Source of the DNA: Acidimicrobiia bacterium
GTDB taxonomy: Bacteria > Actinomycetota > Acidimicrobiia > Spongiisociales > JAENVV01
Assembly: GCA_041628225.1 (NCBI GenBank)
Contig: JBFKPQ010000002.1
Coordinates: 824-64,823 of the forward strand
Reading direction: 5' to 3'
DNA length: 64,000 nucleotides
Every line of letters begins with the position of its first letter. Position 1 is the stretch's first letter. The notes beneath the pieces are model-generated. The model did no database searches, had not been told where the DNA came from, and was given only the letters and a program-made list of their open reading frames with translations. The position numbers were made by a program, and so were the translations under genes. Below, in pieces: positions 1 through 21,550 of the stretch.

Positions 1-850
1 GAAGGACCGACAGGCCATCATCTTCCGTTCCGGCGTCGACCTTTCTGCCGACGTCCTCGACCAGTCGAGCGATCTCGAACTTCTGGTCCGAGCCGGATCG
101 GGTTTCGACAACGTCGACCTCGCCTACGCCCGGAGGCGCGGCCTTAGGGCAATGCGGGTGCCAGGACCCTCGGCGCAGGCGGTGGCCGAACTCACCTTCG
201 GGCTGATGCTGGCCGTCGCCCGGAAGATCGTCGAAGCCGATCGTGCTGTCCGGCAGGGGTCCTGGCCGAAGCACCAATTGGGCGGACCGCTGCTGGCCGG
301 AAAGACGCTGGGCGTGGTTGGAGCCGGAAATATCGGCGGCCGCGTCGGCGAGCTGGGTGTGGCCTGGGGCATGCGAGTCCTCGGCTGTGTCGAAGAGGTC
401 CACCGTCGGGCGCAGACGGCGGCCATGGCCGAGCGCGGCATCGAGCTCTTGACCGCCGAGCAGGTCATCTCCGAGGCGGACATCGTCACCATCCACACTC
501 CGCTGACCGACGCAACCCGCGACTGGTTCGACCGATCGACGCTGGCGACCTTGCGACCTTCGGCCATCCTCATCAACACGGCGCGCGGCGGCATCGTCGA
601 CGAGGTGGCCTTGTTCGACGCCCTGGCCTCCGGACGGCTCGCGGGAGCCGCACTCGACGTGCACCAGCGGGAGGGCGAGGGCATCATCCCGAAACTCGCC
701 GAGCTCCCGAACGTGGTGCTCACGCCCCACATCGGGGGTATGGCTCTCGAGTCGCAAACCATGATCGGCGAGCGGATCGAGGAGATGTTGGATGCCTACG
801 AACGCGGACGCTTCGACGAAGCCGTCCTCCCGAACGAATTGCTGGTGTGA
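1..850 (+). CDS. D-isomer-specific 2-hydroxyacid dehydrogenase (phosphoglycerate-dehydrogenase-like), 5'-truncated by window edge
   Basis: Frame-2 translation from nt 2 is continuous (..RSGVDLSADVLDQSSDLELLVRAGSGFDNVDLAYARRRGL..) into ORF 152..850. Rossmann motif GVVGAGNIGGRVGELG and the catalytic-domain block LTPHIGG are present. Its stop overlaps the next start (ATGA at 847-850). Confidence 0.85.
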   Translation, partial: KDRQAIIFRSGVDLSADVLDQSSDLELLVRAGSGFDNVDLAYARRRGLRAMRVPGPSAQAVAELTFGLMLAVARKIVEADRAVRQGSWPKHQLGGPLLAGKTLGVVGAGNIGGRVGELGVAWGMRVLGCVEEVHRRAQTAAMAERGIELLTAEQVISEADIVTIHTPLTDATRDWFDRSTLATLRPSAILINTARGGIVDEVALFDALASGRLAGAALDVHQREGEGIIPKLAELPNVVLTPHIGGMALESQTMIGERIEEMLDAYERGRFDEAVLPNELLV

Positions 851-1746
851 CCATGGCCACTGCCGAACACAAACGACACGCCCTCCGCGCCGGCCTCGCG
901 GCCGATCGACCGATGGTGATCGTCGGAGCGCATGACGCCTTGTCTGCCCATCTCATCACCCGCGCCGGATTCGACGGCGTCTGGGTGAGCGGCTTCGGCG
1001 TATCGACCATGACGTACGCGATGCCCGACCTCAATCTCGTCACGATGACGGAGGCTCTCGACGCGGCCCGTCGCATCGACGCCGCCACGCCTCTGCCGGT
1101 GGTGGCGGACTGCGACAACGGGTTCGGCGGCCTCAACAACGTCGTCCGAACCGTGCAGGACTACGAGCGGGGCGGCATTGCCGGCATCTGCATCGAGGAC
1201 AACCTGTTCCCGAAGCGCAACAGCCTGCTCGGCTCGGACATCCGGCGCGAGTTGCTCCCGGTCTCAGAACAGGCGCGACGAATCGCAGCCGGGAAGGCGG
1301 GTCAGGTCACCGACGACTTCGTCGTGATCGCCCGCGTCGAAGCCCTCATCGCAGGCCACGGCGTCGACGAGGCGATCGTTCGGGCCAACGCCTATGCCGA
1401 CGCGGGAGCCGACGCGGTGCTCATCCACTCGCGCGACAAGACGCTCGGCGAGATCGAAGCGTTTCTCGCCGCCTGGGAAGGTGACGTGCCGCTGGTCGTC
1501 GTTCCGACGCTTTTTCCGACCTTCACGCCAGAGGAGCTGTACGGCAAGGGCATACAACTCGTCATCCTCGCCAACCAGCCGATGCGGGCCGCCGTCAAGG
1601 CCATGGAGGACACGCTGGCACTCCTCGCCGAACACCGTGTGGCCTCCGCCGTGGACCCGCACATCGCGTCGGTCGGGCACGTCTTCGACCTCGTGGGAAC
1701 CCGCGAGATGATCCAACGCGAAGCCGCCTACGGCGAAGACGGCTGA
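847..1746 (+). CDS. PEP mutase/isocitrate lyase superfamily enzyme, closely PepM-like (phosphoenolpyruvate phosphomutase homolog) with EDNLFPKRNS instead of the EDKxxxxxNS motif
   Basis: Strong block similarity to Mytilus PEP mutase as recalled: VADCDNGFGGLNNVVRTV, GICIEDNLFPKRNSLL, IARVEALIAGHGVDEAIVRANAYADAGADAVLIHS, VVPT. Translationally coupled to the upstream dehydrogenase. Confidence 0.85.
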   Translation: MTMATAEHKRHALRAGLAADRPMVIVGAHDALSAHLITRAGFDGVWVSGFGVSTMTYAMPDLNLVTMTEALDAARRIDAATPLPVVADCDNGFGGLNNVVRTVQDYERGGIAGICIEDNLFPKRNSLLGSDIRRELLPVSEQARRIAAGKAGQVTDDFVVIARVEALIAGHGVDEAIVRANAYADAGADAVLIHSRDKTLGEIEAFLAAWEGDVPLVVVPTLFPTFTPEELYGKGIQLVILANQPMRAAVKAMEDTLALLAEHRVASAVDPHIASVGHVFDLVGTREMIQREAAYGEDG

Positions 1747-1747
1747 C

Positions 1748-2938
1748 GTGGGGGCCGCTCCCGGCGTCGCGAATCCGGCCGTTGTCATCGGCCTGGGGAA
1801 CCTCGTCGGATTGCAGACCGTTCGTGTGCTGGCCGCACGCGACGTTCCCGTCTACGGCATCGCCGACCATGCCGGTCAGCCGTTCTCCCGGACGCGCCTG
1901 TGCCGAGAGGTGGTGTTCGTCGACACGGCGAGCTCAGCACTCATCGATGCGCTCGAAGACCTCGGTCGGCGCTTGCCGGCCAGGGCGGTGCTCTATCCGT
2001 GTGACGACGTCACGGTGCTCGCCGTGTCCGCGGCGCGGGGTCGCCTCGAGCCCTGGTACCACCTTTCCCTGCCGGATCACGACGTGCTCGAGACCTTGAT
2101 GGACAAGGCGCGCTTCCACGCTTGGGCGACCGAGCAAGGCCTGCCCGTTCCGGTGGGTCGGGTGGTGGCCGACCGGGACGATGTCGGGTCGGCGGCCGCG
2201 TTGCTGAGGTTCCCGGTGGTGATGAAACCAGACCATCGGGGCGAGCGGTGGTTCGCGAACACGGCTGAGAAGGCCATACGCGCCGAGACGCCTGCGGAAC
2301 TCCTGGCCGCCTACGAACGCGTCAGAACCTGGGCGGACGGCTTCACCGTGCACGAATGGATCGAAGGAGGCGAGGATGCCCTGTTCTCGTGCAACGCCTA
2401 TTTCGATCGGCTCGGTCAGCCTCTCGTCACGTTCGTGGCCCGGAAGGTCAGGCAATGGCCGCCGCGCACCGGCCGCAGCTCGCTGGGCGTCGAGGTGCGG
2501 AACGACGAGGTGCTGCGAACGGCCATCGAGCTGTTCCAGAAAGCCGGGATGGTCGGGTTGGCGTACCTCGAGATGAAACGGGACGCGCGGACCGGAGAAC
2601 ACATCATCGTCGAACCGAATGTCGGGCGGCCGACCGGCCGATCGGCCATCGCCGAGGCAGGCGGTGTGGAGCTCGTCTACACGATGTATCGGGATGTGCT
2701 TGGCCTGCCCTTGCCAGACAACCGCCAGCAATCGTACGGCTCGGCGAAGTGGATCTACCTGCGTTGGGATCTCCAGTCGGCGTACCGGGACTGGAGAGAT
2801 GGACGCTTGGGTGTCGGCAGTTGGCTGGCGTCGCTGCGAGGTCCCAAATGGTACGCAATCTGGTCCTGGCGCGACCCCATGCCGTTCGTGGCCGACGTCT
2901 GGCAGGTCATCCGGAAAAGCGCGAGGCGATCGCCGTGA
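1748..2938 (+). CDS. ATP-grasp superfamily carboligase (COG3919-like)
   Basis: Pre-ATP-grasp Rossmann start VVIGLGNLVGLQTVRVL, and ATP-grasp core FPVVMKPDHRGERWF...EWIEGGED...LAYLEMKRDARTGEHIIVEPNVGRP. GTG start 1 nt after the upstream stop. Confidence 0.8.
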   Translation: MGAAPGVANPAVVIGLGNLVGLQTVRVLAARDVPVYGIADHAGQPFSRTRLCREVVFVDTASSALIDALEDLGRRLPARAVLYPCDDVTVLAVSAARGRLEPWYHLSLPDHDVLETLMDKARFHAWATEQGLPVPVGRVVADRDDVGSAAALLRFPVVMKPDHRGERWFANTAEKAIRAETPAELLAAYERVRTWADGFTVHEWIEGGEDALFSCNAYFDRLGQPLVTFVARKVRQWPPRTGRSSLGVEVRNDEVLRTAIELFQKAGMVGLAYLEMKRDARTGEHIIVEPNVGRPTGRSAIAEAGGVELVYTMYRDVLGLPLPDNRQQSYGSAKWIYLRWDLQSAYRDWRDGRLGVGSWLASLRGPKWYAIWSWRDPMPFVADVWQVIRKSARRSP

Positions 2939-4077
2939 ACCGTGTGACCGGCCGATTGGTAGACAACCTGTCCGACCTGGAGCCGGTGCGTGCCGACTGG
3001 GACCGGTTGGCGATAGCGGTCGGTCAACCGTATGCGGCGCCTGCCTGGATGTGGCCCTGGTGGGTCCACAAGGCCGCATCCGACTGGCTCTTGCGGGTGG
3101 TGCTGGTCTTCGACGGTGACGAGCTGATCGGCGTGGCTCCCTTCTTTGTCGACAAGAACGCGTTGGGACGGCCCCGCTTTCGGCTCGTGGGCGCGGTCAC
3201 CACGTCACGGGTGGACGTGCTCAGCGCCTCGGGAAGAGACCGCGAGGTGGCCCGGGTGGTGGCGGAAGTGCTCGGTGCTTCCGATCCGGCGCCCGGAACG
3301 ATTCGCTTCGACGGGATCCCGGCCCGCTCCACCTTCCCGCGCCTGCTGGCCGACAGCTGGCAAGGGCGAGCTCCACAACTGTCCGATCGACACTCGTCTC
3401 CGGCCCCGATCGTGACGCTCGACGCCGATTCGTTCGAGAGCTGGATGGCGTCCAAGAGCAGCAACTTCCGCCAGCAGATGCGCCGGCATGCCCGCAAGAT
3501 CGCCGCCGAGGGGGGCGAGTTCCGCCTGGCGACGGTCGCAACCCTCGAAGATGACCTGCGCTCGTTCGCTCGTCTGCACCATCAGCGATGGGACCGCCGC
3601 GGTGGGTCCAGCGTCCTCGACGCTGGGACGGTTCGCATGTTGACCGACGCCGGGAACCACCTCATTCCATCCGGCCGATTCCTCCTCTGGATGCTCGACA
3701 TCGACGGTCGTGCGGTGAGCAGCCAGATCTTCCTCCAGGCAGGCCGGCAGATCTCCTACTGGCTCGGCGGGTTCGACGACGAAGTGGCCCACCTGAAACC
3801 GTCGATCATCACCATCTATCGGGTCGTCGAAGAAGCCTTTGGCAGCGGAGCCACCGCGGTCGAACTGGGTTCGGGCGGTCAGCCCTATAAGTATCGGTTT
3901 GCCGACGCCACCGAGAGCTTGCGCTGGACCTACCTCTCGTTCGGTCCCGCCGAGCGAGCGGTGGCTGCCGCCGAGATCGCTCCTATGCAGATGCGCGGCA
4001 TACTGGCGGAGCGGTTGTCGGCAGACGTGAAGCGCAAGCTGCGCCGCGCCTATGGGACGGTCCGGCGCGGGGTTTGA
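2935..4077 (+). CDS. FemAB-like GNAT acyltransferase (Acetyltransf_6/BioF2-like, CelD-type)
   Basis: GTG at 2935 overlaps the ATP-grasp stop (GTGA). Family-typical C-terminal region NFRQQMRRHARKIAAEGGEFRL...HQRW...YWLGGFDDE...AVELGSGGQPYKYRFAD. The long upstream part of ORF 2356..4077 is rejected as an out-of-frame overlap. Confidence 0.75.
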   Translation: MNRVTGRLVDNLSDLEPVRADWDRLAIAVGQPYAAPAWMWPWWVHKAASDWLLRVVLVFDGDELIGVAPFFVDKNALGRPRFRLVGAVTTSRVDVLSASGRDREVARVVAEVLGASDPAPGTIRFDGIPARSTFPRLLADSWQGRAPQLSDRHSSPAPIVTLDADSFESWMASKSSNFRQQMRRHARKIAAEGGEFRLATVATLEDDLRSFARLHHQRWDRRGGSSVLDAGTVRMLTDAGNHLIPSGRFLLWMLDIDGRAVSSQIFLQAGRQISYWLGGFDDEVAHLKPSIITIYRVVEEAFGSGATAVELGSGGQPYKYRFADATESLRWTYLSFGPAERAVAAAEIAPMQMRGILAERLSADVKRKLRRAYGTVRRGV

Positions 4078-4115
4078 GCACCGGTACCATGAGGTATTCC
4101 TCGAGAGATCACCTC

Positions 4116-7100
4116 ATGACCACGTCCGAACTCACCGAAGGCTTCGGCCCCAACATCTGGCTCGTCGACGAGATGTATCGGAAGTACGTCGATGCGCCGA
4201 ACTCGGTCTCCGAGGCGTGGCGTGAGTTCTTCGCCGATTACACGCCCGGACTGCCGTCGGCGACCATCCGGTCCGAAGCGCCCGCTCCATCTTCGGCGGC
4301 AGCACCAGTTCCGCCCGACGGTGGCGCCGAATCATCTCTCCCGCCCGGCGCCGAGCCGCTCCGTGGTGTCGCGGCGCGCATCGCCGAGCGCATGGACGAC
4401 AGCCTCACCGTGCCGACGGCCACCTCGGTACGAACCATCCCGGCGAAGTTGCTCGAGGTCAACCGACGCATCTTGAACAACCAGCTTCGGCGCCTCATCC
4501 ATGGCGGCAAGGTGAGCTTCACGCACCTGATCGGCTGGGCCGTCGTCAGAGCGATCGCCGAGCAACCGGAGATGAACGTCGCCTACGGCGAGTTCGATGG
4601 GAAGCCCCATCTCATCCGCCACGGCCACGTGCATCTCGGGATCGCCATCGACGTGGCCCGAAAGGACGGTTCTCGCAGCCTGCTGGTGCCGAACATCAAG
4701 GGCGCCGATCAGTTGGACTTCCAGCAGTTCTGGCTGGCCTATGAGGACGTGGTGCAGCGGGTTCGCTCGAACCAGATCAGCCCGGAGGACTTCGCGGGCA
4801 CGACCGTGACGCTGACGAATCCCGGCACGATCGGGACCGTCCAGTCGGTCCCGCGCCTCATGGACGACCACGGGCTGATCGTGGGCGTGGGTGCCATCGG
4901 CTATCCGCCCGAATACTCGGCGTCCGATCCCCGGTTCCTCGCACGCATGGGTATCGGGCGGGTCATCACCTTGACGTCCACCTACGACCATCGCGTCATC
5001 CAAGGTGCCGGATCGGGGATGTTCTTGGCACGCATCCACGAACTCCTGTTGGGCGCCGACGGCTTTTACGACGAGATCTTCCGGTTCATGGGTGTTCCGT
5101 ATACGCCCGCCCGATGGGCGGCCGACGACAACCCGCCCGTCGGATCGCCCGAGTGGGCGGAGAAGCAGGCCCGGGTCTTCCGACTCATCAACATGTATCG
5201 AGTCCGCGGCCATCTCATCGCCGACCTCGATCCGCTCCGCCAGTCCGGCCCGGCCCTCCATCCCGAACTCGACCCGCTCACCTACGGGCTCACGATTTGG
5301 GACCTCGATCGCGAATTCGCCACGGGCGGATTGCTCGGTCGCCCGACCATGGCGCTCGGTGACATCTTGGGAACGCTCCGTGACGCGTATTGCCGGGCCA
5401 TCGGCATCGAGTACATGCACATCCAAGAGCCCGAGCAGAAGGCGTGGATTCAGGAACGGGTCGAGGGTCCGCAGCCCGGCCTGTCACGGGAAACCCGCCT
5501 CCGGCTGCTCCGCAAGCTGAATGAAGCGGAGGCGTTCGAACGGTTCCTCCACACCAAATACGTCGGGCACAAGCGGTTTGGCCTCGAAGGCGCCGAGAGC
5601 CTGATCCCGCTCCTCGACACGTTGCTCAATGCGGCCGTCGAGGACGAGATGGACGAGGCCGTCATCGGCATGGCCCACCGGGGACGCCTCAACGTGCTGG
5701 CCAACATCATCGGCAAGTCATACGCCCGGATCTTCCGGGAGTTCGACGACGTGGCCGTTGAACAGACCCAGGGCTCTGGAGACGTCAAGTATCACCTCGG
5801 CTCGACCGGAACCCACGTGACGCCGTCCGGCAAGGAGCTGGCGGTCGCGGTCGCCGCCAATCCTTCGCATCTCGAGGCCGTCGATCCGGTGCTCGAGGGC
5901 ATCGTCCGGGCCAAGCAGGAGCGGCGCGGAAAGGTCGGACACCATCAGGTCCTTCCGGTGCTGCTGCATGGCGATGCGGCTTTCGCCGGGCAAGGCGTGG
6001 TCGTCGAGACGCTCAATCTCTCCCAGCTGCGGGGCTATCGGACGGGGGGAACCGTCCACATCGTCATCAACAACCAGGTGGGATTCACGACGTCGACCGT
6101 CGACGCCCGATCATCGTTCTACGCAACCGACGTCGCCAAGACGGTGCAGGCGCCGATCATCCATGTCAACGGCGACGATCCCGAAGCCGTTGCCAAGGCC
6201 ACCATTCTGGCGTTCGCCTTCCGGCAGGCCTTCAACAAGGACGTCGTGATCGATCTCATCTGCTACCGGCGCCGCGGCCACAACGAGGGCGACGAGCCGT
6301 CGTACACCCAGCCGCTGATGTACCGGATCATCGACCAACGCCGCTCCGTGCGGAAGCTGTACATGGAGAAGCTCGTCAACACGAAGGAGATCTCGATCGA
6401 CGAGGGCGAGCAGTTGCTGGACGAATACCGGGCGATCCTCGACCGAGCCTTTTCCGAGACGGACGGCCTCACTCCGTCCGTGCTCGACGCCCCCACGCCG
6501 GCGGCCGCCGAAGGTGTCGTCGAGACGGCCGTTCCCGCCGATCGGCTGGAACGCATCGTGCAGGCGATCTCGACGCCACCGGATGGCTTCACGTTGCATC
6601 CGAAGCTGGTGAGGACCGTCGAGATGCGCAAGACGCTCTTCGAGCGGGGGGAGGTCGACTGGGGACTCGCCGAGGCGCTGGCGTTGGGGGCAACCGCCCT
6701 GGAAGGCCATTGGGTTCGCGTGGCCGGCGAGGATTCGCGGCGTGGCACGTTCAGCCATCGACATGCGGCCCTGGTCGACTACGAGACGGGCCAGTCGTGG
6801 GTAGCCCTCCAGGAGCTGGCCGAGGGAACCGCCCGGGTTCGAATCGTCGACTCGCTCCTCTCCGAGTTCGCCGCCGTCGGGTTCGAGTACGGCTATTCGA
6901 TCGAGATGCCGGAGGCACTCACGATCTGGGAGGCCCAGTTCGGCGACTTTGTCAACGGAGCGCAGGTGATCATCGACCAGTTCATCGCCGCCGGTGAGGA
7001 CAAGTGGGGTCAGACCAGCAATCTCGTGATGCTGCTGCCCCATGGGTTCGAAGGGCAAGGGCCCGAGCATTCGTCGGCGCGGATCGAACGATTCCTCCAA

Positions 7101-7655
7101 TCGGCCGCCGAGGACAACATGCGGATCGTCGTGCCTTCGACGGCCGCATCCTATTTCCATGCGCTGCGCCGGCAGGTGAAGTCCCGTGTCGCCAAGCCGC
7201 TGATCGCTTTCACCCCCAAGAGCCTCCTCCGGACGCGTGCCTCCTACTCGGAGCGGATCACGCTCACCGACGGGAGATTCGAAGCGGTCATCCCGGCTGC
7301 AGAGCCGGCCGAGCCGCGACGTGTCGTGTTCTGCAGCGGCAAGTTCTTCTATGACCTCGCCGACGCCCGAACCGACGAGAGTGTCGCGTTGGTTCGGATC
7401 GAGCAGCTCTACCCGTTCCCGGTGACCGAGGTGGCCGAGGTGCTGGCTGCGGCGCCCTCCGACGCCGAGATCATGTGGGCACAGGAGGAACCGTCCAACA
7501 TGGGCGCATGGACCTTCGTGCGTCCTCGGCTCGCCGATCTGGCCGGCCGGCAGATCCGCTTGGTGGCGCGGGCCGAATCGGCGAGTCCCGCGACGGGCAG
7601 CCACCGCTTGCATGACCTCGAGCAGGGCGATCTCGTCGACGAGGTGTTCGGCTAG
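4116..7655 (+). CDS. kgd: multifunctional 2-oxoglutarate dehydrogenase E1 component with fused succinyltransferase-like domain (actinobacterial Kgd/OdhA type)
   Basis: N-terminus MTTSELTEGFGPNIWLVDEMYRKYVDAPNSVSEAWREFFADY matches the mycobacterial Kgd start. An E2-like catalytic region (DHRVIQGAGSGMFL) is followed by the TPP-dependent E1 domains. About 1180 aa. Start at 4116 preferred over the TTG at 4074. Confidence 0.9.
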   Translation: MTTSELTEGFGPNIWLVDEMYRKYVDAPNSVSEAWREFFADYTPGLPSATIRSEAPAPSSAAAPVPPDGGAESSLPPGAEPLRGVAARIAERMDDSLTVPTATSVRTIPAKLLEVNRRILNNQLRRLIHGGKVSFTHLIGWAVVRAIAEQPEMNVAYGEFDGKPHLIRHGHVHLGIAIDVARKDGSRSLLVPNIKGADQLDFQQFWLAYEDVVQRVRSNQISPEDFAGTTVTLTNPGTIGTVQSVPRLMDDHGLIVGVGAIGYPPEYSASDPRFLARMGIGRVITLTSTYDHRVIQGAGSGMFLARIHELLLGADGFYDEIFRFMGVPYTPARWAADDNPPVGSPEWAEKQARVFRLINMYRVRGHLIADLDPLRQSGPALHPELDPLTYGLTIWDLDREFATGGLLGRPTMALGDILGTLRDAYCRAIGIEYMHIQEPEQKAWIQERVEGPQPGLSRETRLRLLRKLNEAEAFERFLHTKYVGHKRFGLEGAESLIPLLDTLLNAAVEDEMDEAVIGMAHRGRLNVLANIIGKSYARIFREFDDVAVEQTQGSGDVKYHLGSTGTHVTPSGKELAVAVAANPSHLEAVDPVLEGIVRAKQERRGKVGHHQVLPVLLHGDAAFAGQGVVVETLNLSQLRGYRTGGTVHIVINNQVGFTTSTVDARSSFYATDVAKTVQAPIIHVNGDDPEAVAKATILAFAFRQAFNKDVVIDLICYRRRGHNEGDEPSYTQPLMYRIIDQRRSVRKLYMEKLVNTKEISIDEGEQLLDEYRAILDRAFSETDGLTPSVLDAPTPAAAEGVVETAVPADRLERIVQAISTPPDGFTLHPKLVRTVEMRKTLFERGEVDWGLAEALALGATALEGHWVRVAGEDSRRGTFSHRHAALVDYETGQSWVALQELAEGTARVRIVDSLLSEFAAVGFEYGYSIEMPEALTIWEAQFGDFVNGAQVIIDQFIAAGEDKWGQTSNLVMLLPHGFEGQGPEHSSARIERFLQSAAEDNMRIVVPSTAASYFHALRRQVKSRVAKPLIAFTPKSLLRTRASYSERITLTDGRFEAVIPAAEPAEPRRVVFCSGKFFYDLADARTDESVALVRIEQLYPFPVTEVAEVLAAAPSDAEIMWAQEEPSNMGAWTFVRPRLADLAGRQIRLVARAESASPATGSHRLHDLEQGDLVDEVFG

Positions 7656-8527
7656 AGCCGAGGTGGTGGGAGGTACTTGGCCTTCTTGAACCCTCCGGAC
7701 CGTTTGGGTCGCAGCACCCACGTCGAGCCCTTCTTGGCTTCGAACGGCCTCGCCAGCACCGTCCCTCGACGAGCCAGGAGATCCATGGTTTCGGTGATCA
7801 CATCACCGTGCGTGCAGATGGCGGCGCGGACATCCGAGAGCGACTCGATCAGCCCGAGGGTGAACCGCGGGTCGGCTCCCTCGGCAAGGGCTTCGTGGTA
7901 CTCGATCTCGACGCCGATCGCCGCCGAGAGGGGTTCGAGCGTCTGCCAGCAACGTGTGTACGGGCTGGACAGCAGCCGAACCAGGCCGTCGTCGGCGAAC
8001 TCCTCGCGCAGCAGCTGAGCCTGGACGCGGCCTTCGGGTGAGAGCGGACGCGTCCGGTCGTCGCCCGTCCAGGTGCGGCGGATGCCCGCCTCGGCATGCC
8101 GGATGATGAGAGTCTTCGGCTTGGGCAGCCACCATTGGTCGGGCAATCCGGCCATGAACTCCCGGTCCCGTTCGTAGGTCAGGTGCTTCAGCGCCTTCTT
8201 TGGGGTGAGCCACGCGACTTCGTCGACTTCCGAGTTCTTCCGGAACGTCCCGGCGGTTGCCTCCATCGCCCAGTAGTGGACGACCTTCGGGTACCCGCGC
8301 GTCGTCTCGTAGTCGATGGCTCCCAGTGCCGGGCCGAGCCGGCACACGTAGCCGGTCTCTTCGGCGACCTCGCGGCGAGCGGCTCGACGGGGCGTCTCGC
8401 CCGGATCCACTTTGCCTTTCGGGAAGGACCAGTCGTCGTACCCGGGACGGTGCGCGAGCAGGACTTCGACGCGTCCTTCATTCCGCCAGACGATTCCTCC
8501 GGCCGCAACGATGTTCTTCTTGGCCAA
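7652..8527 (-). CDS. bifunctional NUDIX hydrolase / histidine phosphatase (MutT1-like)
   Basis: N-terminal Nudix box GKVDPGETPRRAARREVAEETG. C-terminal histidine phosphatase RHAEAG...SSPYTRCWQTL...THGDVI. Convergent with kgd, with overlapping stops. Confidence 0.8.
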   Translation of the reverse strand: MAKKNIVAAGGIVWRNEGRVEVLLAHRPGYDDWSFPKGKVDPGETPRRAARREVAEETGYVCRLGPALGAIDYETTRGYPKVVHYWAMEATAGTFRKNSEVDEVAWLTPKKALKHLTYERDREFMAGLPDQWWLPKPKTLIIRHAEAGIRRTWTGDDRTRPLSPEGRVQAQLLREEFADDGLVRLLSSPYTRCWQTLEPLSAAIGVEIEYHEALAEGADPRFTLGLIESLSDVRAAICTHGDVITETMDLLARRGTVLARPFEAKKGSTWVLRPKRSGGFKKAKYLPPPRL

Positions 8528-8530
8528 CGG

Positions 8531-8707
8531 CTACTCCCATAGCGACCTGCGTCGGAGGACCTTGGCGTCCGTGGGACGCTCCTCGCGCAAGTCGATGATG
8601 ATATCGCCGCAGCGACGACATGCCGTCCGCACGATGCCACCGCCGACCGCCACGGGGGGTTTGAAGTCGTGCACCGTGCAGGACCGGCGGTTGCGGAGAC
8701 GCGACAT
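8531..8707 (-). CDS. small zinc-ribbon-like protein (C-x2-H...C-x2-C), hypothetical
   Basis: MSRLRNRRSCTVHDFKPPVAVGGGIVRTACRRCGDIIIDLREERP. Sits 3 nt upstream of the MutT1-like gene on the same strand. The start could instead be 8773. Confidence 0.4.
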   Translation of the reverse strand: MSRLRNRRSCTVHDFKPPVAVGGGIVRTACRRCGDIIIDLREERPTDAKVLRRRSLWE

Positions 8708-8806
8708 GAGTCTGCGGCGCTGCCGGTGGCGGCCGCCTGGTCGTCTGTCGCGCGCGTCGGGTCGCTCGGTCATCGGGTCGGCGCTCCAGCGTAGTGCACG
8801 CAGGTC

Positions 8807-9352
8807 TCAGCTTGGTCGATCGGCGAACCGGGTCACGATCCAGCGGTGGGCTTGGTCGACGGTGTCGACCGTGTGGATGAGACTGCCGTCGGTGCCCAGA
8901 CGGCCCGTCAACTCGGGAATGAGCGTTCGCCAGAGTTCGCCAACCGTCACGACCGGCCGTGCGGGTCGGCTGCCCAACTGTGCGATGAAGGCATCGTTCC
9001 ACGCCACCATCAGTTCCGTCAGCGTCCCGATCGATCCGGGCATGGCGACGACGCCGTCCGACATCGTCACGAGATCGTGGATGCGTTCGGTCAGTGAGGC
9101 ATGCGGTCGTTCGATCGCCACCCATGGGTTGGCACCGGAACGATCGGGAAAGAGCGCAGGTGCGGTCACCCCGATGACGGTTCCTCCGCGTTCGGCGGCA
9201 CCGCGCGACGCGGCGGCCATGACACCCGCGTAGCCGCCCGTGGCAACCGTGAAGCCGGATTCGGCCAGGAGACTGCCGAGGCGGTGGGCGGCGCGGTAGG
9301 TCGGGTGGTCCGGTGCGGGTTCTGAGCCCCCGAATACGGCGATCGTCGGCAT
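8807..9352 (-). CDS. LOG family protein (TIGR00730 Rossmann-fold, cytokinin riboside 5'-monophosphate phosphoribohydrolase-like)
   Basis: PTIAVFGGS...GGYAGVM...PGSIGTLTEL motifs. Start at the internal Met (residue 42 of ORF 8807..9475); longer alternatives are possible. Confidence 0.7.
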   Translation of the reverse strand: MPTIAVFGGSEPAPDHPTYRAAHRLGSLLAESGFTVATGGYAGVMAAASRGAAERGGTVIGVTAPALFPDRSGANPWVAIERPHASLTERIHDLVTMSDGVVAMPGSIGTLTELMVAWNDAFIAQLGSRPARPVVTVGELWRTLIPELTGRLGTDGSLIHTVDTVDQAHRWIVTRFADRPS

Positions 9353-17210: not shown

Positions 17211-17780
17211 TCAGCGGAGCCCGTCGAGGATGAACCGCTGGATCTGTTCGGCGAGCCCGGCCCGGTCGATCCGGCCGCCCGGGTCGTACCAGCGTTCGAC
17301 GGCGTTGAGGACCGAGAGAACGAAGATGGCAGCCATGTGCGGGTCGAGATCCGAGCGAAACGAGCCGTCGGCGACGCCGGCCCTCACGACCTTCCGGAAC
17401 TCCTGCTCGTAGCGGTCTCGCTGCTCGAGGACGTGCTGTCGCTGGGTGTCGGGAAGCGAGCGGGCTTCGTGGAGGAAGGTCCGTGCCTCGTCGCGGTGAT
17501 CGAGTACCACCCCGAGGTGTCCGACGACCAACAGCTCCAGGCGGTCGGCGGCGGAGGCGACGTCGGATACCTGCGCCCGTTCCGCGACCGCGCCGAACAG
17601 CTCGCCCCCTCGGCGGACCACCTCGACGAGGAGTTCCTCCTTGCTGCCGATGTGGGCGTAGAGCGAACCGCGCAACAGCCCCAACTCGTCTCCGAGGTCG
17701 CGCATGGAGGTTCCGTGGTAGCCGCGCTTGGCGAACAGTCGGCCGGCCGCGATGACGACGTCGTCGCGGGAGGTGGTCAT
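17211..17780 (-). CDS. TetR-family transcriptional regulator (PaaR-like, co-transcribed with paa operon)
   Basis: TetR HTH DVVIAAGRLFAKRGYHGTSMRDLGDELGLLRGSLYAHIGSKEELL. Its start overlaps the paaE stop (ATGA). Confidence 0.85.
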   Translation of the reverse strand: MTTSRDDVVIAAGRLFAKRGYHGTSMRDLGDELGLLRGSLYAHIGSKEELLVEVVRRGGELFGAVAERAQVSDVASAADRLELLVVGHLGVVLDHRDEARTFLHEARSLPDTQRQHVLEQRDRYEQEFRKVVRAGVADGSFRSDLDPHMAAIFVLSVLNAVERWYDPGGRIDRAGLAEQIQRFILDGLR

Positions 17781-18829
17781 ACGTCGAAGTCCAAGGTCAC
17801 GCGGTCCGACCGCGGGTGGGCCTGGCAGGTGAGGATGAGACCTGCGTCGACCTCCTCGGGAACCAGCGCCCAGTTCTTGTCCATCGTGACCTCACCGTCG
17901 ATGAGCTGTGCCTTGCAGGTTGCGCACGCGCCGCCCTTGCACGAGAACGGAAGCTCGCGCCGCACCTGCAAGGCGTGATCGAGGATGGACGGGCCGGCCG
18001 GATCGACCTGCACGACCGAGCCACGGCCTTCGAGAGTGAACGTCACGGTCGCCATGCCGGCGGTGTCGTCGTCCGCGGCGGGCAGACCAACGTCTGTGGG
18101 CGGGCCGGCAAAGAACAACTCGTCGTGGATGACTGCAGGGTCGATGCCGCGATCTTCGAGGGTGCTCCGGGCCGATGCGACGAGGCCGAACGGGCCGCAC
18201 AGGTACCAGTGGTCGACCGACTCCTGATCGACGAGGGTCTCGAAGAGCCGGTCGAGCTTGGCGCCGTCGATGCGACCGGAGAACAGGTCCACGGCGACGT
18301 GCTCGCCCGACAGCACATGCATGAGATGGAACCGATCGGTGTAGCGGTCCTTCAACGCCTCCAGCTCTTCGAGGAACATGATCGAAGCTGCGGTGCGGTT
18401 ACCCAGGATGAGCGTGGCTTTGCCGTGTTCGGTCGTCGAGAGGTGTGTCGAGACGAGCGACAGGATCGGTGTGATGCCCGAGCCCGCCGCGATCGCCGCG
18501 ATGTGGTGGCTGGCCTCCAGAGTGAACTCGCCGACCGGTTCCATCACGTCGAGGGCCATGCCGGCGCGCAGCTCCTTCGTCGCCCAGGTGGAGAAGATGC
18601 CACCATCCAGCCGCTTGATCCCGATACGCAGTTCGCCGGTGGTGGCGTTCGCGCAGATGGAGTAGGAGCGACGCACGTCCTGGCCGCCGATGTCGGCTCG
18701 GACGGTGACGTGCTGTCCGGCCTCGTAGGTGAAGGTGGTGCGCAGCTCGTCGGGAACGGCCAGCGTCACGGCCACGGCTTCGTCGGTCAGCGGTTCGACG
18801 GTCTCCACACCGAGTCGGTGGAACCGCAT
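17777..18829 (-). CDS. paaE: phenylacetyl-CoA 1,2-epoxidase reductase subunit PaaE (FNR-like with 2Fe-2S ferredoxin)
   Basis: FAD/NAD-binding RSYSIC...GSGITP, and a C-terminal CKGGACATCKA...LTCQA ferredoxin. Confidence 0.9.
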   Translation of the reverse strand: MRFHRLGVETVEPLTDEAVAVTLAVPDELRTTFTYEAGQHVTVRADIGGQDVRRSYSICANATTGELRIGIKRLDGGIFSTWATKELRAGMALDVMEPVGEFTLEASHHIAAIAAGSGITPILSLVSTHLSTTEHGKATLILGNRTAASIMFLEELEALKDRYTDRFHLMHVLSGEHVAVDLFSGRIDGAKLDRLFETLVDQESVDHWYLCGPFGLVASARSTLEDRGIDPAVIHDELFFAGPPTDVGLPAADDDTAGMATVTFTLEGRGSVVQVDPAGPSILDHALQVRRELPFSCKGGACATCKAQLIDGEVTMDKNWALVPEEVDAGLILTCQAHPRSDRVTLDFDV

Positions 18830-19275
18830 CAGATGTCCTTGAAGTGGTCGAAGGGTTCACCGCACGACGAGCACACATACAGCGCTTTGCAGGCCGTGGA
18901 TCCGAATTCGCTCACGAGGCGCGGTTCGGCGGTCCGACAGCGCGGGCACGTCACCTCGCCGCCCGGCGGAGCGATCCCGTACGCGTCGAGTTTGGCCCTG
19001 CCCTCGTCGGACATCCACGCGGTGGTCCAGGCGGGGGAGAGGACGGTGCGCACTTCATGTGGGCCGTCCCACAGACGGTCGACGACCGCCGACACGTCTG
19101 CCCGAATGACATCCATCGCCGGACAACCCGAGTAGGTCGGGGTGATCGTGACGATGAGCGTTTCGGAATCGACCGTCACGTCGCGCAGGATGCCGAGATC
19201 GGCGATCGTGAGCACCGGGATCTCCGGGTCGGTGACCGCGTCGAGTGCCGACCGAACGTCCTCGGCGGTCACCAT
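18829..19275 (-). CDS. paaD: phenylacetyl-CoA epoxidase subunit PaaD
   Basis: DVRSALDAVTDPEIPVLTIADLGILRD...TPTYSGCPA...CPRC...CSSCGEPF. Start at Met54 of ORF 18829..19434. Confidence 0.8.
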   Translation of the reverse strand: MVTAEDVRSALDAVTDPEIPVLTIADLGILRDVTVDSETLIVTITPTYSGCPAMDVIRADVSAVVDRLWDGPHEVRTVLSPAWTTAWMSDEGRAKLDAYGIAPPGGEVTCPRCRTAEPRLVSEFGSTACKALYVCSSCGEPFDHFKDI

Positions 19276-20030
19276 GTCAGGCCCGGGTGAGAGCGCGGCA
19301 CGATCTGGAGTTCGGCGAGGAGGAAGCCGAGATGCTCGCTGTGGCGGCCCGCCCGACCGCCCGTCCGCTGGAACGGGTCGTCCGGAACCGTGAGCGTCGC
19401 CTCGTGCAGCACGTTGTGCACCGTGCTCGTCCACCGTGGCGCGAGTGCGCCAGGGTCGATGCCGATGCCATCGGCCGCCAACCGTCGGTCGAGGTCGTCA
19501 CCCGTCGTCAGCTCTGCGGTGAAGCGCCACAGGGAGTCGACGGCGAACTGCATGCGGGTGTGAGATTCCTGCGTACCATCGCCGAGACGCCGGACCCACG
19601 TCGAGGAATGCCGGAGATGGTAGGCGGTCTCCTTGGCGGCCTTGGCGGCGATCCCGGCGAGATCCGGGTCGGACGACGACGCCAGGTCCTGCCAGAACGG
19701 GAGTTGGTAGGCGTCGAAGAACAACTGGCGGGCCATCGTGAAGGCGAAGTCGCCATTGGGCTGTTCCACGAGCAAGACGTTCGAGAACTCGCGCTCTGAC
19801 CGGAAGAAGGCGAAGTCGTCCTCGACCCTGCCCATCCCCTCGCGAACGCCCGCCAGCGAGTAGAGGTGGCGAGCCTGACCCAGGAGGTCGAGGGCGATGT
19901 TGGTGAGCGCGATGTCCTCCTCGAGTTCATGCGCGCGCGACGACCACTCGCCGAGGCGTTGGGCGAGGACCAGGCAATCGTCGGCGTGGCGCAAGACATA
20001 GGCCGTGACATCGGTGGTGTTCGTCGTCAC
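19269..20030 (-). CDS. paaC: phenylacetyl-CoA epoxidase subunit PaaC
   Basis: Ferritin-like PaaC pattern (AQRLGEW...LDLLGQARHLY...DDFAFFRSEREFSN). Confidence 0.85.
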   Translation of the reverse strand: MTTNTTDVTAYVLRHADDCLVLAQRLGEWSSRAHELEEDIALTNIALDLLGQARHLYSLAGVREGMGRVEDDFAFFRSEREFSNVLLVEQPNGDFAFTMARQLFFDAYQLPFWQDLASSSDPDLAGIAAKAAKETAYHLRHSSTWVRRLGDGTQESHTRMQFAVDSLWRFTAELTTGDDLDRRLAADGIGIDPGALAPRWTSTVHNVLHEATLTVPDDPFQRTGGRAGRHSEHLGFLLAELQIVPRSHPGLTW

Positions 20031-20365
20031 ATGTGCCCTACGTCATCGGGGATCTCGTAGAAGGTGGGATGGCGGTACGGCTTGTCGGCGAACGGTTCGA
20101 ACAGCTCGCCGGCCGCGTCGGGGTCAGAAGCCGTGATGGCGGTGCTCGGGACCACCCACAGCGAAACGCCTTCCACGCGCCGGGTGTATACGTCTCGGGC
20201 GGCCTGCAGGGCCGTCTCGGCGTCTGAGGCGTGGAGGCTGCCCGCGTGGACGTGCGAGAGGCCGCGGCGCCGACGAACGAATACCTCCCACAGCGGTGGA
20301 CCCGCTCGTCGATCGCCGATCGAGGGCGGCTGGTCGTCCGGCTGGGAAGGTACTTCGTATGGCAT
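20027..20365 (-). CDS. paaB: phenylacetyl-CoA epoxidase subunit PaaB
   Basis: PLWEVFVRRRRGLSHVHAGSLHA...LWVVPS. RBS GAGGAG. Start at Met29 of the listed ORF. Confidence 0.85.
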   Translation of the reverse strand: MPYEVPSQPDDQPPSIGDRRAGPPLWEVFVRRRRGLSHVHAGSLHASDAETALQAARDVYTRRVEGVSLWVVPSTAITASDPDAAGELFEPFADKPYRHPTFYEIPDDVGHM

Positions 20366-20373
20366 GGCGCTCC

Positions 20374-21291
20374 TCAGGCCGTCCGGCGGTTGGCGTGCTT
20401 GGCGGCGTACGAGGCGGCTGCCTCGCGCACCCACGCGCCCTCGTTCCACGCGTCGACCTTTTGCGCAAGCCGCTCGCGGTTCATGGGGCCGTCACCTGAA
20501 ACAACCCGCCAGAATTCGTCCCAGTCGATGGCACCGAAGTCGTATCGGCCCGCGCGTTCATTCCAGACGAGGTCCGGGTCGGGGATGGTGAGGCCGAGGT
20601 ATTCGGCTTGCGGCACGGTGGTGTCGACGAATTGCTGGCGCAGGTCGTCGTTCGAGACCCGCTTGATCTTCCACGCCATCGACTGGAGCGAGTGCGTCGA
20701 GTCGGCGTCGTGTGGACCGAACATCATGAGTGACGGCCACCACCACCGGTCGAGTGCATCCTGGGCCATCGCCTTCTGATCGTCGGAGCCGCGGCAGAGG
20801 GTGAGCATGATCTCGTAGCCCTGACGCTGATGGAACGATTCCTCCTTGCAGATCCGCACCATCGCACGTGCGTAGGGCCCGTAGCTGCACCGTGCGAGCA
20901 TCAGCTGGTTGGTGATGGCGGCTCCGTCGACCAGCCAGCCGATGGCGCCGATGTCGGCCCAGGTCAGCGTCGGGTAGTTGAAGATCGACGAGTACTTGTG
21001 GCGGCCCACGTGCAGGAGGTGCAGCAACTCGTCGCGGGAGACACCGAGCGTTTCGGCCGCCGAGTAGAGGTAGAGGCCGTGGCCGGCCTCGTCCTGGACC
21101 TTGGCCATGAGGATGGCTTTTCGCTTGAGGCTGGGGGCGCGGGTGATCCAGTTGCCCTCCGGTTGCATGCCGATGATCTCCGAGTGGGCGTGTTGGGCGA
21201 TCTGTCGGATGAGCGTTTGCCGGTAGCCGTCGGGCATGTCGTCTTTCGGCTCGATCTTCTCGTCGGCGTCGATGAGGGCCTGGAAGTCCAT
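20374..21291 (-). CDS. paaA: phenylacetyl-CoA epoxidase catalytic subunit PaaA
   Basis: Diiron ligand motifs ([15 protein letters not shown]...[10 protein letters not shown]...[11 protein letters not shown]). Confidence 0.9.
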
Positions 21292-21305
21292 GTGCCGGAC
21301 GATAC

Positions 21306-21319
21306 CAAACGATCGTTTG
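21306..21319. promoter_or_regulatory. perfect 14-bp palindrome CAAACGATCGTTTG, candidate PaaR (TetR) operator 15 nt upstream of paaA start
   Basis: Reverse complement is identical to itself. Fits the CNAACGNNCGTTNG pattern recalled for Thermus PaaR. Lies in the 260-bp divergent intergenic region. Confidence 0.45.
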
Positions 21320-21550
21320 TTTCGAGCGGAGCGGCGCGAAGAAGGCCCCGCTAGCGTTTCCGCTCTCAGGGCCTTCTACGTGGCTCGATCCGTGACGGAC
21401 CGAACCGAGGCGATCTACGTGTTCCGGCCCGAGGGCCTACGTGTTCCGATCGCGCAAAGGGCAATCTATCGCATGGGCGCCGGTCTGTCCATGGCGGAGT
21501 GTCACGGCGGCGCGGCTAGGTTCGAACCGACACCGAAAGGACGATCCCAG

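Follow-up and report, generated by a model that had tools for sequence, protein, structure and literature searches.

The first 4.1 kb of a 64-kb stretch of DNA from an Acidimicrobiia bacterium (contig JBFKPQ010000002.1; the whole stretch of 64,000 nucleotides is referred to below as the window) carry a cassette of four genes encoding a D-2-hydroxyacid dehydrogenase, a homologue of phosphoenolpyruvate (PEP) mutase, an ATP-grasp ligase and a Fem-type transferase with a GCN5-related N-acetyltransferase (GNAT) fold. With a probability of about one half, this operon is read as encoding a brief route centred on a divergent PEP mutase, in which phosphonolactate would be joined to an amine and serve as a cell-surface decoration. 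The order dehydrogenase, PepM-like protein, ATP-grasp ligase is far beyond chance and is repeated in 36 of the 39 related loci, which come from several phyla; this triad behaves as a portable module that lies mostly in exopolysaccharide (EPS) or envelope-glycan loci.

The four-gene cassette was confirmed as real. Four same-strand open reading frames (ORFs) with high third-position GC content fill the beginning of the window on the plus strand, as described in an earlier interpretation made from the letters of the window (the sequence-only reading), which had seen four tightly coupled genes directly upstream of kgd. The first (2..850) encodes a short-form dehydrogenase resembling phosphoglycerate dehydrogenase (PGDH), the proposed phosphonopyruvate reductase, and is truncated at its 5' end by the window edge. 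Its stop codon TGA (848-850) is overlapped by GTG 847 of the PEP-mutase-like gene (847/853..1746), which starts either there or at ATG 853, the equivalent of which is used by gene callers in a 97% identical relative. The stop of this gene (1744-1746) is followed after 1 nt by GTG 1748 of the ATP-grasp gene (1748..2938; 396 aa), whose own stop TGA (2936-2938) is overlapped by GTG 2935 of the GNAT gene (2935..4077; 380 aa from this in-frame GTG). The 1-nt spacing and the GTGA at 2935-2938 thus agree with the sequence-only reading, and the first overlap proved to be GTGA rather than the ATGA it had given. Gaps between neighbouring genes of the cassette come to 0-2 nt. Directly downstream lies kgd, the frame of which is open from TTG 4074, a start that would overlap the GNAT stop; its true start is probably ATG 4116, as used by gene callers on the 97% relative, which leaves a gap of 38 nt. 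Promoter and terminator scans of positions 1..9000 gave nothing above shuffled controls, so the operon structure is read from gene spacing only. An Rfam search of the whole window matched no family.

Judged by its family scores and active-site residues, the mutase homologue appears to belong to the part of the superfamily that contains PepM and phosphonopyruvate hydrolase (PPH), and not to the methylisocitrate lyase side. The PEP_mutase family PF13714 matches it at 2.8e-57 over residues 14-258, that is, most of the protein. Among the NCBIfam hidden Markov models (HMMs), the PepM model TIGR02320 scores best with 271 bits, followed by the PPH model TIGR02321 with 236 bits and the two PrpB models with 166 and 152 bits, so that PepM is preferred over PrpB by 105 bits. 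Matches to PDB sequences include PepM 5unc (1e-65), PPH 2dua (4e-63) and PepM 1m1b (7e-58). The sequence-only reading had allowed that the protein might fall among the methylisocitrate lyases, the oxaloacetate decarboxylases or another non-mutase group; the scores on the PepM and PPH models against those on PrpB place it with neither of the two named families.

The active site points in the same direction. Residue roles described for PepM and the superfamily (PMC7916636) were checked against the Mytilus enzyme, the numbering of which is used here, and W44, S46, G47, D58, D85, D87, E114, K120, N122, S123, R159 and H190 are all present in the window protein. Across an alignment of 36 sequences of its clade, termed G1 and drawn from reference genomes, D58, D85, D87, E114, K120, N122, S123, R159 and H190 are invariant, W44 and G47 are invariant or almost so, and S46 is kept in 34, with Gly in the other two. 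The position of N122, retained throughout G1, is occupied by Thr in PPH and by Cys in the lyases, where this Cys is catalytic, as well as in the second group described below (G2), and H190 is retained where methylisocitrate lyase has Glu (E188). The position of PepM T121 is Arg in the clade, and the K-x-C-G-H loop of the lyases is missing, with KRNSL in its place. Methylisocitrate or isocitrate lyase was rejected as an identity for the protein on the missing loop, the His at the E188 position and the PrpB scores of 166 and 152 bits; oxaloacetate decarboxylase and carboxyphosphoenolpyruvate (CPEP) mutase were rejected on HMM scores together with active-site residues.

G1 is a coherent clade, monophyletic in 98 of 100 bootstraps of a neighbour-joining tree and spanning 62-97% identity. 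All 36 aligned sequences have the motif EDNxFPKRNS, and of the 120 best matches in databases (67-97% identity), 117 have it too. On average, G1 is 49% identical to G2, 44% to PepM, 41% to PPH and 32% to PrpB. Its carriers include Actinomycetota (Acidimicrobiia, Blastococcus, Geodermatophilus, Nocardioides), Chloroflexota including Limnocylindrales, KSB1 and one deltaproteobacterial metagenome-assembled genome; Blastococcus colisei, Geodermatophilus marinus and Nocardioides caldifontis YIM 730233 are carriers in culture.

G2 is a second non-canonical PepM-like group, the motif of which, EDNxFPK[RK]CS, places Cys where PepM has N122; its members are 47-56% identical to the window protein (loci L039-L082, e.g. 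L054:9914-11623 and L076:10001-10867). It was found in Binatia, Rokubacteria/Methylomirabilota and Myxococcales, including Sorangium cellulosum So ce56. Its gene context, taken from ORF clustering and Pfam only, includes neither a dehydrogenase nor an ATP-grasp partner, and some members lie near genes for a CDP-alcohol phosphatidyltransferase, a squalene-hopene-cyclase-like protein and Mla-like ABC components. In G2 the PepM-like part shares one polypeptide with a MobA-like nucleotidyltransferase domain (PF12804), a type of fusion that is also seen in most canonical Ppm proteins (PMC6697681). Because G2 carries this Ppm-typical fusion, EDN-type proteins do occur in phosphonate-like architectures, which lends weak circumstantial support to the idea that Lys116 may be dispensable.

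The dehydrogenase is a regular companion of the mutase homologue. Both 2-hydroxyacid dehydrogenase domains are recognised in its product (PF02826 at 7e-52 and PF00389 at 1e-16), the best NCBIfam model is that of PGDH (TIGR01327, 228 bits, under the cut-off of 454), and the nearest PDB structures are the PGDHs 1wwk and 1ygy. About 35 codons are absent at the 5' end, judged by the 317-aa orthologue in an 81% identical relative (L002). The RS, RAGxGxDNxD, ARGG, LDV..RE and TPHIGG motifs are kept in 34 orthologues, as are the Arg, Glu and His catalytic positions, and by its domains and catalytic residues the protein is a D-isomer-specific 2-hydroxyacid dehydrogenase. In nearly all of the 39 G1 loci the gene adjoins the mutase homologue immediately upstream, with products of 49-74% identity. 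Dehydrogenases of this kind are an accepted coupling partner of PepM, as in the VlpB type, and the proposal of the sequence-only reading that the adjacent gene drives the mutase reaction matches this published pull (PMC8942020, PMC12871164).

The third product escaped recognition by Pfam, which returned no match, and NCBIfam gave weak ATP-grasp matches of about 1e-4. An AlphaFold (AF2) model with a mean predicted local distance difference test (pLDDT) value of 92 matched PurK, biotin carboxylase, RizA and DdlB in Foldseek, each at probability 1.0 and with template modelling (TM) scores of 0.54-0.67. On this predicted structure, the protein is an ATP-grasp enzyme with the three-domain fold. Its homologues, some of which show a faint PF02786 match, are named carboxylate--amine ligase, D-aspartate ligase or ATP-grasp carboligase in databases, and the protein itself resembles the COG3919 'D-aspartate ligase' group. 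The characterised D-aspartate ligase acts on cell-wall precursors. In 36 of the 39 G1 loci there is a ligase that shares 43-65% identity with that of the window, its gene usually lying directly downstream of the mutase homologue and within about 100 bp of it.

The fourth product belongs to the CelD/BcsL family (Acetyltransf_6), the name its homologues also carry. Pfam matches are PF13480 at 2e-25 and PF04339 (FemAB_like) at 27.3 bits, a borderline match given the cut-off of 27. Searching PDB sequences with a profile of the GNAT alignment returned noise only, so a fold search was needed; the AF2 model (pLDDT 94) gave Weissella FemX as the best Foldseek match (TMt 0.73, probability 1.0), followed by the aminoacyl-tRNA-dependent peptide synthases Sba18/Sbb17, FemA and the MprF synthase domain. 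The model thus has a Fem-like tandem-GNAT fold, which fits an aminoacyl-tRNA donor and an acyl-CoA donor alike. With this, the family assignments made for all four proteins in the sequence-only reading were borne out by Pfam, NCBIfam and the Foldseek searches of the models. Among the G1 loci the GNAT gene occurs only in the window, in the 97% relative (L093) and in the 81% relative (L001/L003), and is a lineage-specific addition to the triad of dehydrogenase, mutase homologue and ligase.

Proteins about 44% identical to the GNAT are encoded in polysaccharide loci. In one case (L094:8001-10321), a 44% identical GNAT homologue is followed at once by an ATP-grasp paralogue of 31% identity, with no mutase or dehydrogenase gene nearby, inside an EPS locus that contains a deacetylase, two flippases, a family 4 glycosyltransferase (GT4), Bac_transf and Wzy_C. 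Since this pair occurs in the absence of a mutase, the pairing of GNAT and ATP-grasp is itself a theme of glycan loci, and it looks like a separate, recurrent glycan-modification module.

The genomic surroundings of G1 connect the triad with cell-surface polysaccharides. A scan of one genome per species yielded 32 G1 loci, which became 39 non-redundant loci with the addition of metagenome contigs; their flanking ORFs were clustered and representatives scanned for families. A Wzx-type flippase was found in 15 of these loci, family 2 glycosyltransferases (GT2) and GT4 in 13 each, a polysaccharide deacetylase right after the ligase in 12, the initiating transferase Bac_transf in 11, GNVR/Wzz proteins in 10 and sulfotransferases in 6, and Wzy-like polymerases and Poly_export likewise recur beside the triad. 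Furthermore, in about 24 of the 39 loci the gene immediately before that of the dehydrogenase encodes a P-loop protein of about 227 aa with a distant likeness to thymidylate (dTMP) kinase (L005:8294-8977, L029:8336-9016, L091:10921-11616 and about 20 other loci). This protein may phosphorylate a phosphonate or another intermediate of the pathway; a canonical Ppm cluster family with a flanking thymidylate kinase has been described (GCF 540; PMC8942020). The KSB1 loci present a separate peculiarity (L087/L089, 11031-15987), in which proteins with a Phytase domain (PF02333) are encoded between the mutase homologue and the ATP-grasp ligase and again shortly downstream, followed after the cluster by a 1265-aa cadherin/Big_9 repeat protein; a phosphate-ester hydrolase family is an odd companion for these genes.

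The pathway proposed here starts from the observed families, folds, active-site residues and synteny, and each of its substrates and products is a candidate. The EDN-type mutase would first convert PEP to 3-phosphonopyruvate, which, by analogy with VlpB, the PGDH-like dehydrogenase would reduce to 2-hydroxy-3-phosphonopropanoate (phosphonolactate); phosphonopyruvate is one atom shorter than phosphohydroxypyruvate, the product of PGDH itself. Reduction by the translationally coupled dehydrogenase would pull the unfavourable mutase equilibrium forward. The ATP-grasp enzyme may then turn a carboxylate, in the simplest case the one on phosphonolactate, into an acyl phosphate and couple it to an amine. 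In most genomes the triad lies in polysaccharide loci, often with the dTMP-kinase-like gene before it and the deacetylase gene after it, and the acceptor is therefore probably a glycan amine, most likely that of an amino sugar or another cell-envelope glycoconjugate and not of a free peptide. An amine of this sort would be uncovered on an N-acetyl sugar by the deacetylase often encoded after the ligase. In the lineage of the window, the Fem-type GNAT would take the place of the deacetylase as partner and may add or prepare an aminoacyl or acyl group on the same acceptor, and a reduced four-gene version would have landed upstream of kgd in this Acidimicrobiia-like lineage. In its most specific form, the proposal holds that the EDNxFPKRNS clade consists of genuine PEP mutases which, together with the reductase and the ligase and, in many genomes, the dTMP-kinase-like kinase and the deacetylase, place phosphonolactate on the surface glycans of Actinomycetota, Chloroflexota and KSB1 living in soil and sediment, as an amide to a de-N-acetylated amino sugar; this version is tentative and less likely than not.

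Several observations weigh against a phosphonolactate pathway. Inventories separate PepM from other superfamily members by the signature EDKX5NS (PMC6697681, PMC8942020, PMC12723261), which is replaced by EDNLFPKRNS in the window protein, and the residue corresponding to Mytilus K116 (Asn119 in the window protein) is Asn in all 36 aligned G1 sequences. The 271 bits on TIGR02320 lie below the curated equivalog cut-off of 319.55. As the protein falls outside the operational definition on both counts, we infer rather than assign the name PepM; of the claim that the protein is a PepM-like PEP mutase, the catalytic residues and the best-scoring model stand, and the signature and the cut-off do not. 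The neighbour-joining tree groups PepM with PPH in 83 of 100 bootstraps, and it gives no firm branching order among G1, G2 and PepM+PPH (G1+PepM+PPH in 29, G1+G2 in 21). No characterised member of G1 was found in the searchable literature. Neither the window nor its close relatives contain a ppd, aminotransferase, vlpCDE or nucleotidyltransferase gene, no glycan genes lie downstream of the window copy, and the substrates of the ligase and the GNAT are guesses from family and context.

Many of these points are shared by the strongest alternative, which is rather unlikely and holds that the EDN protein is not a mutase but an oxo-acid hydrolase, a decarboxylase, a lyase or an enzyme of some other PEP reaction. 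It would supply a 2-oxo acid for the dehydrogenase to reduce to an ordinary D-2-hydroxy acid such as D-lactate or D-glycerate, which the ATP-grasp ligase would place on a glycan amine, and no C-P bond would be made. Beyond the failure of both the diagnostic motif and the curated cut-off, the strict conservation of Asn at position 116 suggests a functional shift, the nearest sister group, G2 (49% identity), has Cys where the lyases have their catalytic Cys, and further phosphonate genes are absent close by. VanH and VanA show that a D-hydroxyacid dehydrogenase and an ATP-grasp ligase can cooperate without phosphonates. However, the phosphoryl-transfer residues of PepM are all kept (N122, S123, R159, H190, K120 and D58), His replaces Glu188 of the lyases, their Cys/Gly-His loop is missing, and the PepM score exceeds that of PrpB by the margin given above. 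Moreover, common 2-oxo acids require no dedicated supplier enzyme.

A diffusible product is improbable. According to this explanation, which was that of the sequence-only reading, phosphonolactate or a derivative would be joined to amino acids by the ATP-grasp ligase and a tRNA-dependent Fem-type enzyme, giving a phosphonopeptide or ester similar to valinophos. The early chemistry would be identical to that of the favoured glycan pathway, VlpF is an ATP-grasp enzyme that acts on a phosphonate scaffold (PMC12723261), the closest folds of the GNAT are aminoacyl-tRNA-dependent transferases, among them the natural-product enzymes Sba18/Sbb17, and the window copy lies outside any glycan locus. On the other hand, the window and its close relatives contain no vlpC/D/E homologue and no exporter, resistance or regulatory gene; an exporter is missing from the cassette itself, from the region downstream of it and from those relatives alike. 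The ligase is named D-aspartate-ligase-like (COG3919) by databases, most lineages carry the triad within EPS loci, and the GNAT is of the CelD/BcsL type, with homologues in EPS loci. Because the triad is found among flippase, glycosyltransferase, Bac_transf, Wzz/GNVR, Wzy and deacetylase genes, and because the GNAT is of this type, a cell-surface glycoconjugate is preferred over a secreted phosphonopeptide, and the valinophos-type assignment was not upheld.

The expectation that more cluster genes lie upstream of nt 1 fared no better. In the 81% relative (L002), the operon opens with the dehydrogenase gene, which is separated by a 205-bp gap from a divergent APH-family gene; a larger cluster upstream of the window is therefore unlikely. 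This upstream context is known from L002 only, and the contigs of the 97% relative also begin inside the dehydrogenase. A dTMP-kinase-like gene was found neither in the 64-kb window nor in the 81% relative.

A catabolic cassette, in which the dehydrogenase would oxidise phosphonolactate and the PepM-like protein would act as a PalA-like hydrolase yielding pyruvate and phosphate, is very improbable, since the TIGR02321 score of 236 bits, the match to 2dua and one homologue labelled 'phosphonopyruvate hydrolase' in NCBI are set against a PPH cut-off of 374.4 bits, the Asn where PPH has Thr (PMC7916636), the absence of palB, a transporter or a LysR regulator from the window and close relatives, and an obligate ATP-grasp partner and EPS context that fit no catabolic role.

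Altogether, the interpretation offered by the sequence-only reading is partly supported, and the cassette is probably a non-canonical PepM system that makes phosphonolactate and feeds a cell-surface conjugate.

The genes that follow the cassette downstream serve ordinary metabolism and comprise kgd, a NUDIX-histidine phosphatase, a LOG-like protein, an E1 dehydrogenase, an MMPL protein and paa genes. The cassette lies upstream of kgd in the window, in L093 and in L001/L003, and in none of the other G1 loci; a functional link to kgd was rejected, the adjacency being limited to the Acidimicrobiia-like lineage and probably incidental. The NUDIX hydrolase is fused to a histidine phosphatase (branch 1), and its gene (7652-8527, minus strand) is convergent with kgd, the ends of the two overlapping by 4 nt. 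Further downstream (17777-21375, minus strand), a phenylacetate-CoA oxygenase set encodes two PaaA/PaaC-family proteins and a PaaE-like FAD/NAD/2Fe-2S reductase; these genes represent ordinary aromatic catabolism and have no relation to the cassette.

The significance of the clade follows from the way in which phosphonate metabolism is surveyed. Producers and products are sought almost wholly through pepM with the exact EDKX5NS signature (PMC6697681, PMC8942020, PMC12723261). Because such inventories keep only PF13714 proteins with this signature, G1 would be discarded as 'not Ppm', and motif filters would overlook G2 as well. Literature searches for the EDN variant, or for an EPS module of PepM, ATP-grasp and thymidylate kinase, found no description. 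If the EDN clade does form C-P bonds, the filter misses a widespread lineage spanning multiple phyla and including cultured Blastococcus, Geodermatophilus and Nocardioides, and with it a new early branch, a Ppd-free phosphonolactate route tied to cell-envelope polysaccharides. Estimates of soil phosphonate makers would then change, ATP-grasp attachment would represent a chemistry distinct from the known route of cytidine monophosphate (CMP) activation, and a previously unrecognised class of phosphonoglycans would constitute an undercounted biological source of C-P compounds. If the protein is not a mutase, it would instead represent a new activity in a well-studied superfamily, carried by a complete PepM active site, and would be mechanistically informative.

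Compared with canonical PepM, exemplified by the enzymes of Mytilus edulis (1M1B) and Streptomyces platensis (5UNC), G1 has the same PF13714 fold and catalytic set at a mean identity of 44%, and its gene likewise adjoins that of an enzyme able to consume phosphonopyruvate. It differs by Asn for K116, Arg for T121, a TIGR02320 score under the cut-off and a clade of its own, and none of the loci examined shows it fused to a nucleotidyltransferase or accompanied by Ppd. PalA of Variovorax (2DUA; TIGR02321) shares about 41% identity, the fold and the same metal and carboxylate ligands; PPH, however, reads EDKTFPKDTS, with Thr at the N122 position, whereas the window protein has Asn there, is devoid of Lys116 and stands outside any palB/palR context. 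For the fourth gene, the relevant comparison is with FemX/FemA and with CelD/BcsL (PF13480/COG5653): the GNAT shares the tandem-GNAT fold, with a TM score of 0.73 to Weissella FemX, although it is only 12-15% identical to solved Fem proteins and has no match to PDB at the sequence level.

At the level of whole clusters, valinophos biosynthesis, likened here by its published description, combines a PepM-type enzyme (VlpA), a dehydrogenase with a 2-Hacid_dh_C domain (VlpB) and an ATP-grasp protein (VlpF) in one cluster, as is seen in the window (PMC8942020, PMC12723261). In contrast, VlpC/D/E are lacking in the window and in L001-L003 and L093, so that there is no route to dihydroxypropylphosphonate, the mutase motif is non-canonical, and the wider family resides in polysaccharide loci and not in Streptomyces natural-product clusters. 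Clusters for phosphonoglycans or phosphonate-decorated EPS, for example those for polysaccharides carrying 2-aminoethylphosphonate (AEP) or 2-hydroxyethylphosphonate (HEP), place a PepM-type gene among flippase, glycosyltransferase and polymerase genes, as do the G1 loci (PMC8942020, PMC6697681). The known clusters of this kind employ canonical Ppm, Ppd and nucleotidyl (CMP) activation, whereas the G1 loci carry, in place of Ppd and the nucleotidyltransferase, a dehydrogenase, an ATP-grasp ligase and often a dTMP-kinase-like kinase.

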